Notes: generated by a model from the letters alone, not told the origin. Shown: positions 1,640-52,728, numbered from the stretch's first letter. The stretch: DNA of 64,000 bases from Escherichia coli (GCF_030013205.1 NZ_CP122648.1); one strand, 5' to 3'. Translations and numbers: made by a program.

Positions 1640-1730
1640 GCATTTGTAGGCAGGATAAGGCGTTTACGCCGCATCCGGCATTTGAGCAGGATGCCTGATG
1701 CGACGCTGATAGCGTCTTATCAGGCCTACA
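1640..1730. repeat. REP/BIME palindromic elements downstream of cpxA
   Basis: gtaggcaggataaggcgtttacgccgcatccggca and gcctgatgcgacgctgatagcgtcttatcaggcctac are typical enterobacterial REP units. Confidence 0.6.
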
Positions 1731-2562: not shown

Positions 2563-3546
2563 TTATTTCACCGTACCTAAAATTTCGATTTTCGCTGCTC
2601 TGGCTTTGACTTTACGTGACCAGATAGAGGTAAGAATTGGCACCAGAATCGAAGTCACAATGACCGCCGTCGCGACCAGCGAAGTTGCTGCCGGAGCCAT
2701 CGGTTTAAACGCAGGCACCATTTCTGCAATCAGCACAGGTGTCGCTACCGCGGCCCCTGCGGAACTGGAAGCGGCAATTCCGGCAGTGCCATCGCCACCG
2801 CCAATCAATTTATCAGCGATAATCAACGGAATACCGGTCACGATAATTACTGCCACACCCAACAGGATCCCCAGCAAACCTGTCTGGGCAATTACCGTCA
2901 AATCAATGGTATTACCCAGTGCGAAGGCAAAGAATGGAATCAGCGTCTGCACCGCTTTGCTGAAAAATTCTCGTAATTCAGGGTCAAGGTTCCCAAGGGC
3001 AAAGCCCACCAGGAACGGTAATACTGCGCCGACGAAAACATGCGGTTCAAACGAGGCAATCCCGGCAGTGCCCAGAATAATCATCGTCATGAGCGGCCCG
3101 GACTCCAATGACATCAACACAAATGCCCCAGCTTCTTCTTTTGTGCCGTACTGCTGCATGATGGAAGCGTAAAGTCCGCCGTTGGTCATATCCATCGCCG
3201 CCACCAGCGCCAGCGTTGAAAGTCCGGCAAAGAATCCAACTTCAACACCATGTTCCGGAATAATGCGCGAGGCAATTGCCGCAACCACCCACGCGACGGC
3301 AATTTTTGTTACCACCAGCGTACCGGATTTACGCAATACCGTTCCCGTCGCGCTTAATTTTATTGACGCCCCCATGCAAAAAAACCACACCGCCAGAATG
3401 GGCACCGTACCGGTAATCATCCCGTTGGTGAATGATCCAAAATATTTCCCCGCCTCCGGCGAGAAGGTGTGGCACAGTGCGCCAAGGAATAACGGGACGA
3501 GCATCATCCCCCCCGGGATTTTCTCAATCGAGCGTTTTATCTGCAT
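2563..3546 (-). CDS. kdgT: 2-keto-3-deoxygluconate permease KdgT (327 aa)
   Basis: Polytopic membrane ORF beginning [25 protein letters not shown]; start chosen at the ATG giving the 327-aa length I recall for KdgT. Confidence 0.85.
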
Positions 3547-18427: not shown

Positions 18428-19108
18428 TTAACGCAGGCTATTATAGTCATCGACCATTTCGTTGTACTCGCGTAACGCTCGCGGAAATGAGTCGTCGACC
18501 ATCCAGCTTGTGTTTGCATCCTGAAGTTGCTCTTTATCCCAGTCAGAGTACGGAACTTTATCTCTGACGCGGCGAACATATTTTTTAGCCTCGAGTTGAT
18601 ACTGGTCTGCCGAATTAATGAACGAGAAATTCATACCGCCTTTATCCGCTTCTTTGGCCTGCGCCACCAGCGTTTCCAGTTCAGAGACTTTCTTCATTGC
18701 CGCATCAACATCAAACTTCTCTTGCGAAATCAGGTTATTAATTTGTTTCGCTGAAATCATGACTGCCAGAGAGTAGTAGTGGAATGTTTTCCCTTCTCTT
18801 TGTTCAATATTTTTCAGTTCCGCAAGCTGGCGCTTATCGTTAATTTCCTGAATCGCCGCATGATAAGATTCTGCTACAGGTTCAAAGGCTTCAAGATTTT
18901 TTAAGAATGTCTGGTGCAGCGTTTTCCCTTTCGCAAACGCATCGTCTTTATAATTTTCCTGGGTGTAATATTTATCCATTTCGTTAATGGTATTACCCAA
19001 CGCCACGGCAGTATCAATATAACTTACCGCCACGCCATCAATAGGTTGCAGCGCAGGCGTTAACGCCACTACACGCGCTTTGTTTATAAATAAAATAATA
19101 AAATTCAC
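18428..19108 (-). CDS. yiiG: YiiG-like protein (DUF3829-type), at most 226 codons here with a GTG as the only upstream start; possibly a 5'-truncated remnant
   Basis: ORF translation recognised as the C-terminal portion of YiiG; the reading frame is closed by a stop 7 codons upstream, inside the fdhD terminator hairpin; no signal peptide or lipobox. Confidence 0.5.
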   Translation of the reverse strand: MNFIILFINKARVVALTPALQPIDGVAVSYIDTAVALGNTINEMDKYYTQENYKDDAFAKGKTLHQTFLKNLEAFEPVAESYHAAIQEINDKRQLAELKNIEQREGKTFHYYSLAVMISAKQINNLISQEKFDVDAAMKKVSELETLVAQAKEADKGGMNFSFINSADQYQLEAKKYVRRVRDKVPYSDWDKEQLQDANTSWMVDDSFPRALREYNEMVDDYNSLR

Positions 19109-19157: not shown

Positions 19158-19991
19158 TTAATTGCTCAAACGCTGCGGATGGGTATAAACCGTTGCCCGA
19201 CCCGGTTTACAAAAACCTACCAGTGTCAGATTACAGCGCTCAGCCACTTCTACAGCAAGCGTGGTCGCGGCAGACACCGCAAACAAAATCTCTACGCCGC
19301 ACATCGCCGACTTTTGCACCATTTCATAACTGGCACGGCTGGAAACCAGTACCGCACCTTGCTGCCAGCTTTCCCCTTCTTGTGACCGGCGGCCTAACAG
19401 TTTGTCCAGCGCCACATGGCGACCCACGTCTTCATGCCCGCCGACCAGTTCGCCAGATGGCAACATCCATGCAGCGGCGTGAGTACAACCAGTCAGTTGC
19501 CCCACTGGCTGGAAATCATTGAGATGACGTAATGCATCATCCAGTTTGTTGAGATCAAACGTCTGGGTGAACGGCAGCGGCTGCACCGGTTTACCGATAT
19601 CGTTAAGCTGTTCTACACCGCATACGCCACAGCCCGTACGTCCCGCCAGCGCCCGGCGGCGCTCCTTCAACCCCATAAAGCGGCGGCTGGAAAGCTCAAT
19701 TTGCACTTCCAGACCATTACAGGAAGGAACGACATCCATACCGAAGATATCGCGCGGACTTTCGATAATCCCCTCGGAAAGCGAAAAACCGAGCGCAAAG
19801 TACTCAAGGTCTTTGGGCGACGCCATCATCACCACATGCGAAATGCCGTTGTAGACCAGCGCAACGGGAACTTCTTCCGCGACCTCATCTAACCGTGGGT
19901 GTTGTAAATCATCACGCCGCCATAACTCAATTTGACGAACACCTGTGACATTTGTCACATTTTCGATTTCTTTTTGCTGTGTTTTTTTCAC
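19158..19991 (-). CDS. fdhD: Formate dehydrogenase accessory sulfurtransferase FdhD (277 aa)
   Basis: 277-aa [31 protein letters not shown]...; divergent from fdoG. Confidence 0.9.
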
Positions 19992-20184
19992 TTTCTCTTA
20001 ACCAGATAAGAACACACACACCAACATTATGGTATTCTGTTACAAACCCTTCCTGGATGGAGGGAAATTGAGCCAATTCTGGACCTTTGCGGCCCCTTCC
20101 GCAAAGAAAAATAACTCCCACTCCCTGCACACGCAGCAAGCGAATGTAAATGGGACGTGACAATGTCGAAACAAGGAGCAATCC

Positions 20185-23100
20185 ATGCAGGTCAGCAGAA
20201 GGCAGTTCTTTAAGATCTGCGCTGGCGGTATGGCAGGCACCACGGCAGCGGCACTGGGTTTTGCACCCAGCGTAGCACTCGCGGAAACCCGGCAGTATAA
20301 ACTGCTGCGCACCCGCGAAACCCGTAATACCTGCACCTATTGTTCCGTAGGCTGTGGGCTGTTGATGTACAGCCTCGGTGACGGAGCAAAAAACGCCAAA
20401 GCATCTATCTTCCATATCGAAGGCGATCCGGATCACCCGGTCAACCGCGGTGCACTTTGTCCGAAAGGCGCTGGCCTGGTGGATTTCATCCACTCCGAAA
20501 GCCGTCTGAAGTTTCCGGAATACCGTGCGCCAGGTTCTGATAAATGGCAGCAAATCAGTTGGGAAGAGGCGTTTGATCGCATCGCCAAACTGATGAAAGA
20601 AGACCGCGATGCTAACTACATTGCGCAAAACGCCGAAGGCGTGACCGTTAACCGCTGGCTCTCCACCGGGATGCTGTGTGCTTCCGCGTCGAGTAACGAA
20701 ACCGGCTATTTAACGCAAAAATTCTCCCGCGCGCTGGGTATGCTCGCGGTCGACAACCAGGCGCGTGTCTGACACGGACCAACGGTAGCAAGTCTTGCTC
20801 CAACATTTGGTCGCGGTGCGATGACCAACCACTGGGTCGACATCAAGAACGCCAACCTCGTCGTGGTGATGGGCGGTAACGCCGCTGAAGCTCACCCGGT
20901 CGGGTTCCGCTGGGCGATGGAAGCCAAAATTCACAACGGCGCGAAGCTGATTGTGATCGATCCTCGCTTTACGCGTACGGCGGCGGTGGCTGACTACTAT
21001 GCCCCTATTCGTTCCGGTACTGACATTGCTTTCCTGTCAGGCGTATTGCTGTACCTGCTGAACAATGAAAAATTCAACCGCGAATACACCGAAGCCTATA
21101 CCAACGCCAGCCTGATCGTGCGTGAGGATTACGGCTTTGAAGATGGCCTGTTCACCGGCTATGACGCGGAAAAACGCAAGTACGATAAATCCTCCTGGAC
21201 TTACGAACTGGACGAAAACGGCTTCGCCAAACGCGATACCACGCTGCAACATCCGCGCTGCGTGTGGAACTTGCTGAAACAGCACGTTTCCCGCTACACG
21301 CCAGATGTGGTTGAAAACATCTGCGGTACGCCAAAAGACGCGTTCCTGAAAGTCTGCGAATACATCGCCGAAACCAGTGCTCACGATAAAACAGCGTCGT
21401 TCCTCTACGCCCTCGGCTGGACGCAACACTCCATTGGTGCGCAAAACATTCGTACGATGGCGATGATCCAGCTGCTGCTCGGCAATATGGGGATGGCTGG
21501 CGGCGGCGTTAACGCCCTGCGCGGTCACTCCAATATTCAGGGGCTGACCGACCTGGGGCTGCTGTCGCAGAGCCTGCCAGGTTACATGACGCTGCCAAGC
21601 GAGAAGCAGACCGATCTGCAAACCTACCTTGCCGCCAACACGCCGAAACCGCTGCTGGAAGGCCAGGTTAACTACTGGGGCAATTACCCGAAATTCTTCG
21701 TCTCCATGATGAAGGCCTTCTTTGGTGATAAAGCGACGGCAGAAAACAGCTGGGGCTTTGACTGGTTGCCGAAGTGGGATAAAGGCTACGACGTCCTGCA
21801 ATACTTCGAGATGATGAAAGAGGGCAAAGTCAATGGCTATATCTGCCAGGGCTTTAACCCGGTTGCCTCATTCCCGAACAAAAACAAAGTGATCGGCTGT
21901 CTGTCGAAACTGAAGTTCCTCGTGACCATCGACCCGCTGAACACTGAAACCTCTAACTTCTGGCAGAACCACGGTGAACTGAACGAAGTTGACTCGTCGA
22001 AGATCCAGACCGAAGTGTTCCGTCTGCCATCGACCTGCTTCGCGGAAGAGAACGGTTCAATCGTCAACTCTGGTCGCTGGTTGCAGTGGCACTGGAAAGG
22101 TGCGGACGCCCCGGGGATTGCGCTGACTGACGGCGAGATCCTCTCCGGTATCTTCCTGCGCTTGCGCAAGATGTATGCCGAACAGGGTGGCGCGAACCCG
22201 GACCAGGTGCTGAACATGACCTGGAACTACGCCATTCCGCATGAGCCATCTTCAGAAGAAGTGGCGATGGAGAGTAACGGTAAGGCGCTGGCCGATATTA
22301 CCGATCCGGCAACCGGTGCGGTTATCGTCAAGAAAGGCCAACAACTTAGCTCGTTCGCCCAACTGCGCGATGACGGTACAACCTCCTGTGGCTGCTGGAT
22401 TTTCGCCGGTAGCTGGACGCCAGAGGGCAACCAGATGGCACGCCGTGATAACGCCGATCCGTCTGGCCTCGGTAACACGCTGGGCTGGGCATGGGCATGG
22501 CCGCTTAACCGCCGTATTCTGTATAACCGCGCCTCCGCAGATCCGCAGGGTAACCCGTGGGATCCGAAGCGTCAGTTGCTGAAATGGGACGGCACTAAGT
22601 GGACCGGCTGGGATATTCCGGACTACAGCGCAGCGCCTCCGGGCAGCGGTGTTGGGCCGTTTATCATGCAGCAGGAAGGCATGGGGCGTCTGTTTGCCCT
22701 CGATAAGATGGCGGAAGGTCCGTTCCCGGAACACTACGAGCCGTTTGAAACGCCGCTGGGAACTAACCCGCTGCATCCAAACGTTATCTCGAACCCGGCT
22801 GCACGTATCTTTAAAGACGACGCCGAAGCGTTGGGTAAAGCCGATAAGTTCCCGTATGTCGGAACCACCTATCGTCTGACCGAGCACTTCCACTACTGGA
22901 CCAAACACGCGCTGTTGAACGCGATTTTGCAACCAGAGCAGTTTGTGGAAATCGGTGAGTCGCTGGCGAATAAACTTGGCATTGCCCAGGGCGATACCGT
23001 GAAAGTCTCCTCCAACCGTGGCTATATCAAAGCCAAAGCGGTGGTGACCAAACGTATTCGCACGCTGAAAGCGAACGGCAAAGATATCGATACCATCGGT

Positions 23101-23235
23101 ATTCCGATTCACTGGGGCTATGAAGGTGTTGCGAAAAAAGGCTTTATTGCCAACACGTTAACGCCATTCGTCGGTGATGCGAACACGCAGACGCCAGAGT
23201 TTAAGTCCTTCCTTGTGAATGTGGAAAAGGTGTAA
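20185..23235 (+). CDS. fdoG: Formate dehydrogenase-O major subunit FdoG (1016 aa) with in-frame UGA selenocysteine at codon 196
   Basis: Tat signal MQVSRRQFFKICAGG; two track ORFs (20185..20772 and 20821..23235) share one frame and are joined by TGA at 20770-20772; molybdopterin oxidoreductase motifs throughout. Confidence 0.9.
20770..20815 (+). other. Selenocysteine UGA codon and adjacent SECIS stem-loop of fdoG
   Basis: UGA followed at once by cacggaccaacggtagcaagtcttgctcc, which can fold as a hairpin in the position expected for a bacterial SECIS. Confidence 0.7.
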
Positions 23236-23247
23236 CGGAGACGACAT

Positions 23248-24150
23248 ATGGCTTATCAATCGCAAGATATCATTCGTCGTTCCGCGACTAACGGTCTGAC
23301 CCCCGCGCCTCAGGCGCGGGACTTCCAGGAAGAAGTGGCGAAACTCATCGACGTCACCACCTGTATCGGCTGTAAAGCCTGTCAGGTGGCGTGTTCAGAG
23401 TGGAACGACATTCGCGATACCGTCGGCAATAACATTGGGGTGTACGACAACCCCAATGATTTAAGCGCCAAATCGTGGACGGTAATGCGCTTCTCGGAAG
23501 TGGAACAGAACGACAAACTGGAATGGCTGATCCGCAAAGACGGCTGTATGCACTGTTCCGATCCAGGCTGCCTGAAAGCGTGCCCGGCGGAAGGAGCAAT
23601 TATTCAGTATGCCAACGGTATCGTCGACTTCCAGTCCGAGCAGTGCATCGGCTGCGGTTATTGCATTGCGGGCTGTCCGTTCGACATTCCGCGCCTCAAC
23701 CCGGAAGACAACCGCGTCTACAAATGTACGCTGTGCGTTGACCGCGTGGTGGTTGGGCAAGAACCAGCCTGCGTGAAGACCTGCCCAACGGGCGCGATTC
23801 ACTTCGGTACGAAAGAGTCGATGAAAACGCTGGCGAGCGAGCGCGTGGCGGAGCTGAAAACTCGCGGTTACGACAATGCGGGTCTGTACGATCCGGCAGG
23901 CGTTGGTGGTACACACGTTATGTACGTGCTGCACCATGCTGACAAGCCAAATCTGTATCATGGCTTGCCGGAGAACCCGGAAATCAGCGAAACCGTGAAA
24001 TTCTGGAAAGGCATCTGGAAACCGCTCGCAGCTGTTGGCTTTGCGGCTACCTTCGCAGCCAGTATCTTCCACTACGTGGGTGTCGGTCCGAACCGTGCGG
24101 ATGAGGAAGAGAATAATCTGCACGAAGAGAAAGACGAGGAGCGCAAATGA
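23248..24150 (+). CDS. fdoH: Formate dehydrogenase-O iron-sulfur subunit FdoH (300 aa)
   Basis: Multiple CxxCxxCxxxCP ferredoxin motifs and a C-terminal TM anchor. Confidence 0.9.
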
Positions 24151-24782
24151 AACGACGTGACACCATCGTGCGCTACACCGCGCCGGAACGTATCAACCAC
24201 TGGATCACCGCCTTCTGCTTCATCCTGGCGGCGGTGAGCGGGCTGGGCTTTTTGTTCCCGTCCTTCAACTGGTTGATGCAAATCATGGGCACACCGCAGC
24301 TGGCGCGAATTCTGCACCCGTTTGTCGGCGTGGTTATGTTTGCCTCGTTCATCATCATGTTTTTCCGTTACTGGCATCACAACCTAATCAATCGGGATGA
24401 TATCTTTTGGGCGAAGAATATTCGTAAGATCGTCGTCAACGAGGAAGTAGGTGACACCGGGCGTTATAACTTCGGTCAGAAATGCGTTTTCTGGGCGGCG
24501 ATTATTTTCCTGGTTCTGCTGCTGGTGAGCGGCGTGATTATCTGGCGTCCTTATTTTGCGCCTGCTTTCTCAATCCCGGTGATCCGATTCGCGTTAATGC
24601 TGCATTCATTTGCCGCAGTGGCGTTAATTGTGGTTATCATGGTGCATATCTACGCCGCCCTTTGGGTGAAAGGCACGATTACCGCCATGGTGGAAGGATG
24701 GGTTACCAGCGCCTGGGCGAAGAAACATCACCCGCGCTGGTACCGTGAGGTCCGCAAGACAACGGAAAAGAAAGCTGAATGA
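24147..24782 (+). CDS. fdoI: Formate dehydrogenase-O cytochrome b556 subunit FdoI (211 aa)
   Basis: Four-TM b-type cytochrome ORF overlapping the fdoH stop. Confidence 0.9.
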
Positions 24783-25708
24783 GTATTCGCATAATCCCGC
24801 AAGATGAGCTGGGTTCGAGCGAGAAACGTACGGCGGATATGATTCCGCCGTTATTGTTCCCTCGGCTCAAGAATTTATACAACCGCCGCGCCGAGCGTCT
24901 GCGCGAGCTGGCAGAAAATAATCCGCTGGGTGATTACCTGCGCTTTGCTGCGCTTATCGCCCACGCCCAGGAAGTGGTGCTGTACGACCATCCGCTGGAG
25001 ATGGATCTGACTGCACGCATTAAAGAAGCCAGCGCACAGGGCAAGCCCCCGCTGGATATTCACGTTCTGCCGCGTGATAAGCACTGGCAAAAGCTGCTGA
25101 TGGCGCTAATTGCTGAGCTGAAACCTGAAATGAGCGGCCCGGCGCTGGCAGTGATTGAGAATCTGGAGAAGGCATCGACTCAGGAGCTGGAAGATATGGC
25201 CAGCGCACTGTTTGCCTCTGATTTCTCATCCGTCAGTAGCGATAAAGCGCCGTTTATCTGGGCTGCACTGTCGCTCTACTGGGCGCAGATGGCCAATCTG
25301 ATCCCCGGCAAAGCCCGCGCTGAATACGGCGAACAACGTCAATATTGCCCGGTATGTGGCTCTATGCCTGTTTCCAGCATGGTGCAAATTGGCACCACTC
25401 AGGGTCTGCGTTACCTGCACTGCAACCTGTGTGAAACCGAATGGCACGTAGTGCGCGTAAAATGCAGCAACTGCGAGCAGAGCGGCAAACTGCATTACTG
25501 GTCGCTGGATGACGAACAGGCCGCGATTAAAGCCGAAAGCTGCGATGACTGCGGCACTTACCTGAAGATTCTTTATCAGGAAAAAGAACCGAAAGTTGAA
25601 GCCGTGGCAGATGACCTCGCCTCTCTGGTACTGGACGCGCGAATGGAGCAAGAAGGCTATGCTCGTAGTTCCATCAACCCGTTCCTGTTTCCGGGTGAAG
25701 GGGAGTAA
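24779..25708 (+). CDS. fdhE: Formate dehydrogenase formation protein FdhE (309 aa)
   Basis: [28 protein letters not shown]... with the CxxC pairs typical of FdhE. Confidence 0.9.
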
Positions 25709-46619: not shown

Positions 46620-47303
46620 TTAATTGTGCACAGAAAACCCCCAGCTAGGCTGGGGGTTCCGGAAAGCTTTCAGCTTTGAGCCAGTTATTAAAACCCCTTT
46701 TGATTTGTTAAAACACCTTGCGGTCTGGCAACTGCAAGTGTCAAACAAGAAATCAAAAGGGGGTCCCAATGGGGAACGAAAAGAGCTTAGCGCACACCCG
46801 ATGGAACTGTAAATATCACATGGTTTTTGCGCCAAAATACCGAAGACAGGTGTTCTACAGAGAGAAGCGTAGAGCAATAGGCAGTATTTTGAGAAAGCTG
46901 TGTGAGTGGAAAAGCGTACGGATTCTGGAAGCTGAATGCTGTGCAGATCATATCCATATGCTTGTGGAGATCCCGCCTAAAATGAGCGTATCCGGGTTTA
47001 TGGGATATCTGAAAGGGAAAAGCAGTCTGATGCTTTACGAGCAGTTTGGTGATTTGAAATTCAAATACAGGAACAGGGAGTTCTGGTGCAGAGGGTACTA
47101 CGTCGATACAGTGGGTAAGAACACGGCGAAGATACAGGATTACATAAAGCACCAGCTTGAAGAGGATAAAATGGGAGAGCAGTTATCGATTCCCTATCCG
47201 GGCAGCCCGTTTACGGGCCGTAAGTAACGAAGTTGGATGCAAATGTCAGATCGTGTGCGCCTGTTAGGGCGCGGCTGGTAAGAGAGCCTTATAGGCGCAT
47301 TTG
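46620..47303 (+). mobile_element. IS200 (IS200/IS605 family) insertion sequence; boundaries approximate
   Basis: Y1 transposase gene flanked 5' by the characteristic structured leader: perfect hairpin acccccagc-tag-gctgggggt (46637..46657) and a 13-bp inverted repeat ccccttttgattt / aaatcaaaagggg (46694..46762) that sequesters the Shine-Dalgarno. Confidence 0.75.
46769..47227 (+). CDS. tnpA: IS200 transposase TnpA (HUH/Y1 family, 152 aa)
   Basis: MGNEKSLAHTRWNCKYHMVFAPKYRRQVFY...HIHMLVEIPPKMSVSGFMGYLKGKSS... is near-identical to IS200 TnpA as I recall it. Confidence 0.9.
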   Translation: MGNEKSLAHTRWNCKYHMVFAPKYRRQVFYREKRRAIGSILRKLCEWKSVRILEAECCADHIHMLVEIPPKMSVSGFMGYLKGKSSLMLYEQFGDLKFKYRNREFWCRGYYVDTVGKNTAKIQDYIKHQLEEDKMGEQLSIPYPGSPFTGRK

Positions 47304-52439: not shown

Positions 52440-52590
52440 AACTTTGCCTCAGGCATTAGAAATAGCGCGTTATTGTACACGGATTAATCGCACTACAAAA
52501 CAGGATCACAAACATCCTCCGCAAACAAGTATTGCAGAGTCCCTTTGTGATCGCTTTCACGGAGCATAAAAAGGGTTATCCAAAGGTCAT

Positions 52591-52728
52591 TGCACCAATA
52601 TGGTGCTTAATGTTTCCATTGAAGCACTATATTGGTGCAACATTCACATCGTGGTGCAGCCCTGTTGCACGATGGTGCGCATGATAACGCCTTTTAGGGG
52701 CAATTTAAAAGTTGGCACAGATTTCGCT
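52591..52728 (+). promoter_or_regulatory. glnA control region: NtrC enhancer sites and sigma-54 promoter glnAp2
   Basis: TGCACCAatatGGTGCT (52591..52607) and GCACTATattGGTGCAA (52624..52640) match the NtrC consensus; TGGCAC-N5-TCGCT (52713..52728) matches the -24/-12 sigma-54 element. Confidence 0.75.

Follow-up and report, generated by a model that had tools for sequence, protein, structure and literature searches.

A predicted selenocysteine UGA codon and its SECIS hairpin in fdoG of Escherichia coli

The TGA at positions 20770–20772 of the window (the whole 64,000-nucleotide stretch of E. coli DNA that was analysed) and the hairpin that follows it are almost certainly the selenocysteine (Sec) recoding site of fdoG, the gene for the alpha subunit of formate dehydrogenase-O (FDH-O); within this reading, SelB binding and selenium incorporation are the steps that we infer. 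The locus is one continuous gene in which a UGA occupies the Sec position; a SECIS that is conserved and covaries lies immediately 3' of that codon, inside the coding sequence (CDS). The fdoG site is already known, a textbook case of programmed UGA recoding that does not depart from the established picture. Indeed, fdnG, fdoG and fdhF are the three selenopolypeptide genes of E. coli (PMC4009273). The genes of the locus and the recoded codon are as follows.

19158–19991, minus strand: fdhD, accessory sulfurtransferase gene, upstream of fdoG and divergent from it (TIGR00129, 340 bits; RefSeq)
20185–23235, plus strand: fdoG CDS, FDH-O alpha subunit, 1016 codons including Sec196 (translation, RefSeq, K-12 identity, TIGR01553)
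20770–20772, plus strand: UGA codon 196, predicted to be read as Sec (sequence; aligns to X196 of 1kqf_A)
23248–24150, plus strand: fdoH, FDH-O beta Fe-S subunit (TIGR01582, 478.7 bits; RefSeq fdoH)
24147–24782, plus strand: fdoI, FDH-O cytochrome b556 gamma subunit (NF007924, 453.3 bits, cut-off 341)
24779–25708, plus strand: fdhE, accessory gene (NF002925, 604 bits)

Translation of the 1016-codon frame at 20185–23235 yields a product with a twin-arginine motif (SRRQFFK) at its N-terminus and a single internal stop, at codon 196. A mechanical ORF list breaks the frame (frame 1) at this codon into ORFs at 20185–20772 (195 aa) and 20821–23235 (804 aa), which bears out the description in the earlier note of two same-frame ORFs split by the TGA. 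The sequence around the break reads CAG GCG CGT GTC TGA CAC GGA CCA ACG GTA GCA AGT CTT GCT CCA ACA TTT GGT CGC GGT GCG ATG. The products of both ORFs match TIGR01553 (formate dehydrogenase alpha subunit), the N-terminal one at profile positions 1–194 and the C-terminal one at positions 196–1009 (1278.7 bits for the C-terminal part, cut-off 814). Thus, exactly one profile position is missing between the two halves, that of Sec.

The earlier note also called the gene fdoG, and this name holds. The window's gene shares 98.4% nucleotide identity with curated K-12 fdoG (b3894), with two amino acid differences between the products. The two genes are identical throughout 20740–20850, the stretch that contains the Sec codon and SECIS, and have the same neighbourhood; they differ by 50 nucleotides scattered over the rest of the CDS, which give rise to V417I and T483A. 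Furthermore, with fdhD upstream and fdoH, fdoI and fdhE downstream, the gene order is that of K-12 b3891–b3895 (fdhD / fdoGHI-fdhE / yiiF). Of 5426 complete E. coli genomes, 5425 contain the 3.3 kb surrounding fdoG, with 100% identity in several porcine strains, and by BLAST strain K_EC180 (NZ_CP062203) matches the first 32 kb of the window at 99.99% identity.

RefSeq/PGAP annotates one intact 3051-nt CDS across the TGA, with the coordinates given above, under the label 'fdnG, formate dehydrogenase-N subunit alpha'. Taken at its word, this label would make the gene fdnG rather than fdoG. The name is the one that PGAP gives to the locus among the E. coli records listed, and the best NCBIfam model for the gene, TIGR01553, itself bears the formate dehydrogenase-N name; the SECIS, moreover, does not differ between fdnG and fdoG. 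However, identity with K-12 fdnG is merely 75% at the nucleotide and 77% at the amino acid level, as against the 98.4% and shared neighbourhood of K-12 fdoG, and E. coli genomes carry the true fdnG at a second place. The gamma subunit gene next door also separates FDH-O from FDH-N, as its product passes the FdoI-specific model and scores 243.6 bits with the FdnI model NF007558, below the cut-off of 339. An fdnG identity is therefore extremely improbable. Judged by orthology and synteny, the choice between fdnG and fdoG is a naming question that appears settled, and the RefSeq name, inherited from the profile, is incorrect at the fdoG locus.

The reading of the UGA as a Sec codon, likewise claimed in the earlier note, agrees with the contiguous halves of TIGR01553 and with the homologous protein structure. 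The stop codon of fdoG aligns with X (SeCys196) of chain 1kqf_A in the solved structure of FdnG (1KQF; alignment score 904.7 bits across the first 460 residues), within a motif identical in both proteins (DNQARV-X-HGPTVASLAPTFGRGAMTNHW) and flanked by near-identical residues. The predicted Sec-containing peptide spanning residue 196 is NQARV-U-HGPTVASLAPTFGR. In the homologous FdnG structure, Sec196 is a molybdenum ligand in the active site. A pattern scan with one genome per species recovered 120 homologous loci; the pattern fixes part of 20761–20786, and conservation within that stretch is partly a product of the selection. TGA occupies codon 196 in 116 of these loci, from Proteobacteria, Acidobacteria and others, and a cysteine codon (TGT or TGC) takes its place in the remaining four. 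Of 5433 E. coli records, 5321 show at least 99% identity over the 76 nt that surround the UGA. [quoted passage not shown]

A genuine stop at this TGA would instead leave a split or pseudogenised fdoG, with a 195-aa fragment and an 804-aa protein made by re-initiation at ATG 20821. The mechanical ORF list reads the locus in this way, both fragments are recorded as called proteins, each from at least 1000 public contigs, and termination at the UGA is what established knowledge leads one to expect when selenium or SelB is lacking. However, the 16 codons (48 nt) from the TGA to the next ATG (20821) encode HGPTVASLAPTFGRGA, which is the same in FdnG and belongs to its active-site segment. The TGA is retained not only in 116 of the 120 homologous loci but also in virtually every one of the 5425 E. 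coli genomes. RefSeq, for its part, has a single intact CDS that is not marked as a pseudogene, and a SECIS is present. We consequently give hardly any credence to a genuine stop and favor recoding of the UGA, with the following RNA elements at the site.

20767–20825, plus strand: full SECIS element, Rfam SECIS_3 (RF01989) (cmscan, 84.3 bits, model positions 1–59 of 59)
20773–20815, plus strand: SECIS hairpin, lower and upper helix (Rfam consensus structure; minimum free energy (MFE) hairpin at 20775–20815)
20773–20783, plus strand: 11-nt spacer from the UGA to the upper stem-loop (nt 4–14, counted from the sequence)
20784–20801, plus strand: minimal upper stem-loop, predicted to bind SelB (fold GG-U-AGCAA-GUC-UUGCU-CC)

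The match to SECIS_3 covers the whole model with E=1e-19 and exceeds the gathering score of 63, and it is the only SECIS match in the 64-kb window. Its consensus structure spans 20773–20815, exactly the range in which the earlier note had placed a stem-loop 3' of the UGA, and the RNA of 20770–20815 folds in ViennaRNA into the MFE hairpin with an energy of -12.7 kcal/mol. The further claim that this hairpin is the SECIS is upheld by the above-threshold score, by identity with the element of K-12 fdnG and by the presence of both the conserved bulged U and the conserved loop GU.

In the numbering that takes the U of the UGA as nt 1, the upper stem-loop (20784–20801, ((.(((((...)))))))) occupies nt 15–32. 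Its 5' side runs from G15 (20784) and G16 through a bulged U17 (20786) to A18, G19, C20, A21 and A22; the apical loop is G23, U24 and C25 (20792–20794); and the 3' side consists of U26, U27, G28, C29 and U30, followed by C31 and C32, which ends at 20801. U17 is unpaired in both the MFE structure and the Rfam consensus and is invariant in the 72 sequences of the covariation set described below, where the same base is the second position of a Val codon. Both G23 (20792) and U24 (20793) lie within the loop GUC and are conserved across these sequences, the former in at least 90% and the latter in all. The stem-loop is 18 nt long with one extra potential pair, A22-U26, and the loop measures 3 nt or, if this pair is open, 5 nt. 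The stem has 7 bp and one bulge, and the distance from the UGA to the loop is 19 nt (20773–20791).

Most of these features agree with published descriptions of bacterial SECIS elements. In E. coli, the SECIS carries a bulged U and, in the loop, an adjacent unpaired G and U (PMC8704476), and its 17-nt upper stem-loop is separated from the UGA by 11 nt, with U17, G23 and U24 as the SelB contacts (PMC8659212). The fdoG element follows the E. coli minimal-SECIS rules in its 11-nt spacer, its stem start at G15, its bulged U17 and its loop G23/U24, and its stem-loop is 1 nt longer than the 17 nt given there. These rules reportedly originate with Liu et al. 1998. The general bacterial model is broader and asks for a loop of 3–9 nt, an upper stem of 4–16 bp, a G as the first or second base of the loop (PMC13188914, Fig. 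2A legend), 16–37 nt from the UGA to the loop and an MFE of -7.5 or lower (PMC13188914). The fdoG hairpin falls within these limits, with the loop GUC (G first, then U), a 7-bp stem, a 19-nt distance and -12.7 kcal/mol.

Next to the site in K-12 fdoG itself, a close known relative of the element is the SECIS of K-12 fdnG (RF01989), identical at 59 of 59 nt and with the same covariance-model score of 84.3 bits. The two genes also share the Sec position (196), the active-site peptide and the 18-nt stem-loop architecture, although fdnG is a paralogue in another operon, the nitrate-inducible fdnGHI, and is only 75% identical at the nucleotide level overall. The SECIS of fdhF (RF01988, SECIS_2) is the experimentally dissected reference SECIS. 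Like it, the fdoG element has an 11-nt spacer, a GG opening of the stem, a U17 bulge, the loop bases G23 and U24, and CACGG after the UGA. In contrast, the fdhF stem-loop is 17 nt long with a 4-nt loop (UGCA-GGUC-UGCA), compared with 18 nt in fdoG (AGCAA-GUC-UUGCU), its lower-stem sequence is different, and its host protein is FdhF, with Sec140. In the comparison with the fdnG and fdhF elements that the earlier note proposed, the element falls within the fdnG class and shares the SelB-contact features of fdhF, but its SECIS_2 score is below threshold. By its covariance-model scores, the element is assigned to SECIS_3, the fdnG/fdoG class. The 18-nt length of its stem-loop appears to be a variant of the fdhF geometry and not a failure, and by analogy the element would work like the fdhF SECIS. 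Membership in the fdhF class itself was tried and rejected (28.1 bits against a SECIS_2 gathering score of 70, with 87.1 bits for the K-12 fdhF control).

Covariation in other bacteria supports the upper helix. From the 116 UGA-bearing loci we obtained 72 distinct 59-mers, in which 97.8% of the upper-helix cells are paired and compensatory changes occur in four of the seven pairs. For example, alignment columns 21 and 33 hold GC in 50 sequences, AU in nine, CG in six and GU in five, and columns 24 and 30 hold AU in 41, CG in 27 and GC in two. The pair 22-32 alternates between GC (59) and UG (11), and the pair 18-35 between GC (70) and UA (1). The covariation score was reached by none of 500 shuffles, and sliding the 3' partners to other registers lowered pairing to 28–57%. 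Columns U20, G26 and U27 either do not vary or are conserved in at least 90% of the sequences. The compensatory changes fall mostly at synonymous sites: columns 21, 24, 30 and 33 each correspond to the third base of a codon (for Val, Ala/Ser, Leu and Ala/Gly, respectively), so that constraint on the protein does not explain the covariation. The lower helix is 84–85% paired across the 72 sequences and has two alternative registers, that of Rfam (84.0%) and that of the MFE structure (85.1%), neither of which is clearly better. Unpaired cells of the upper helix come mostly from two Desulfovibrio/Mailhella loci with a different downstream sequence.

Identity between the paralogues peaks at the same place. 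The longest perfect run between fdoG and fdnG anywhere in the gene measures 71 nt (20767–20837), the next being 36 nt, and it holds 20 consecutive identical codons capable of synonymous change, for which the chance expectation is about 0.008. Across 27 Enterobacterales fdoG/fdnG loci, synonymous codons are 85–100% identical from 20767 to about 20832, compared with about 0.55 in the flanks. Expressed by blocks, the frequency of identical codons is 0.96–0.99 in 20770–20829 against 0.35–0.64 in the flanking 10-codon blocks of these loci. The profile is partly circular at 20773–20802, where the selection of loci partly fixes the bases, and free of this effect in the codons from 20803 on.

Folding energy carries much less information. 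When the 46-nt RNA was compared with dinucleotide shuffles, 21 of 200 folded at least as well (z=-1.37), which is not significant, and in longer contexts the MFE was indistinguishable from that of shuffled sequence (z=-0.77 for 59 nt and -0.07 for 91 nt). Stability alone thus neither confirms nor refutes a SECIS; the evidence for one comes from the match to the covariance model and from covariation. The earlier note had proposed that the lack of a stable hairpin with conserved apical-loop bases would speak against a SECIS. A hairpin with the loop GU was found, but with an energy no better than that of shuffles this proved a weak test. A rule-based scan of the window supports the site weakly, with a single TGA of 2268 on both strands (the one at 20770) satisfying the E. 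coli minimal-SECIS rules and a mean of 0.2 matches in shuffled windows.

These results also bear on whether the hairpin is an accident of the conserved peptide HGPTVASLAPTFGRG, with no role for the RNA and with the UGA recoded or suppressed independently of it. Such an accident would fit a folding energy equal to that of shuffles, the many invariant columns that coincide with the first or second base of a conserved residue's codon, and a single simple-rule match, about five times the shuffled expectation. It does not fit the compensatory changes in the third bases of codons (columns 21-33 and 24-30), the synonymous identity over 20767–20832 in the Enterobacterales loci, the 71-nt run shared by the paralogues or the E-value of the covariance-model match. 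Furthermore, the four Cys-codon homologues encode a similar peptide, and no comparable hairpin was obtained on folding them. An accidental hairpin is accordingly most implausible, and we retain the SECIS as a functional RNA element.

The recoding site could operate as follows. The selC product, tRNA(Sec), is charged via SerRS, SelA and SelD. By analogy with the established E. coli sel system, SelB with GTP and Sec-tRNA(Sec) would bind the stem-loop at 20784–20801 through the bulged U17 and the loop bases G23 and U24, and the approaching ribosome would melt the lower helix. As only an 11-nt spacer separates the UGA from the stem-loop, SelB would be tethered at the ribosome as the UGA moves into the A site. 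SelB could then deliver its Sec-tRNA(Sec), competing with release factor 2, and selenocysteine would be inserted. In the Tat-exported catalytic subunit, Sec196 would thereby coordinate molybdenum at the active site. If selenium or SelB were absent, translation would be expected to terminate at the UGA and leave the 195-aa fragment.

The synonymous constraint seems to reach to about 20832, 17 nt past the 3' end of the hairpin (20815), and may have an explanation in codon preference or in gene conversion between the paralogues. It is conceivable, if rather unlikely, that the constrained RNA element extends beyond the canonical hairpin; a longer lower helix that takes in the UGA, or sequence-specific contacts made within the mRNA channel, might then be a requirement that has gone unrecognised. 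Gene conversion that recurs locally between the paralogues fdoG and fdnG may produce the same pattern. So may the use of preferred codons (GGU, GCG, ACC, AAC and CAC), the mundane alternative.

The significance of the site is confined to annotation. When the UGA is taken for a stop, a respiratory enzyme subunit of 1016 residues is split into products of 195 and 804 aa, which pollute protein databases. The statement in the earlier note that gene callers routinely split or truncate the gene is accurate for the exact fragments, each of which occurs on at least 1000 contigs, but not for RefSeq/PGAP, which calls a single CDS. The 195-aa and 804-aa products sit in public protein clusters of 3382 and 6687 members, respectively. 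Some of the split fragments are even labelled 'sulfate ABC transporter substrate-binding protein'.

The 71 nucleotides from 20767 to 20837, which begin just upstream of the in-frame TGA codon (20770–20772), are perfectly conserved between fdoG and the fdnG gene of K-12, two genes that share 75% identity over their whole length. Across the 27 fdoG/fdnG loci of Enterobacterales used for the synonymous-codon profile, synonymous codons are 85–100% identical up to approximately position 20832. The frozen synonymous stretch in these loci reaches 17 nt beyond the 3′ end of the SECIS hairpin (20815). In the K-12 genome, SECIS matches above threshold were identified in fdnG and fdhF (context in PMC10945757). 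Furthermore, the 59-mer of K-12 fdoG is identical to the window's above-threshold SECIS match (context in PMC10945757).

Two formate dehydrogenase homologues, from Candidatus Desulfovibrio gallistercoris (L032) and Mailhella sp. (L066), retain both the UGA and the peptide motif that flanks it. The sequence downstream of the UGA in these two loci (GGUACCGGCUCUGGCAGAG) does not fit the upper helix of SECIS_3, the Rfam model (RF01989) of the fdnG/fdoG type. Presumably, both loci carry a different SECIS class.

The locus at 20185–23235 lies within the fdoGHI-fdhE operon and is the fdoG orthologue. Among the listed E. coli records, RefSeq/PGAP names it "fdnG: formate dehydrogenase-N subunit alpha", a systematic naming quirk whose source is TIGR01553. 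The split products of fdoG on either side of the TGA (20185–20769 and 20821–23232) are widespread in public protein sets, where they form clusters of 3382 and 6687 members, respectively. Among the 195-aa N-terminal fragments, some entries from Cronobacter malonaticus and Hafnia alvei bear the name "sulfate ABC transporter substrate-binding protein".

The 5′ untranslated region of fdoG also gave a sub-threshold match (20016–20214, plus strand; 32 bits, E = 2.9e-5) to the FdoG1_thermometer family (RF02778), which has a gathering score of 50. The alignment is confident for the 3′ half only, which contains the Shine-Dalgarno sequence and the AUG.

Beside fdhD, the window carries a remnant of yiiG:

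18428–19069, minus strand, 5′-truncated yiiG remnant (partial pseudogene in RefSeq)

Compared to K-12, approximately 470 bp are absent, comprising the fdhD-yiiG intergenic region and the first ~414 nt of yiiG. The junction maps to 19062–19069, where two K-12 alignment blocks overlap by 8 nt.

Five further features of the window, all known small RNAs or repeats, scored above the Rfam gathering threshold:

1649–1726, plus strand, naRNA4 element of the REP type (one copy)
46636–46759, plus strand, STnc490
52521–52628, minus strand, ES222
59406–59659, minus strand, CsrC small RNA
60688–60806, minus strand, Spot 42 small RNA

The annotation of a near-identical RefSeq strain lists yiiE, in the stretch at window positions ~26350–31350, and kdgT (2564–3546) as frameshifted pseudogenes. 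In the same stretch of this strain, the block 3′ of yiiE contains hypothetical genes, a NadS-family gene and an alpha/beta hydrolase, as well as a transposase that adjoins a truncated gene.
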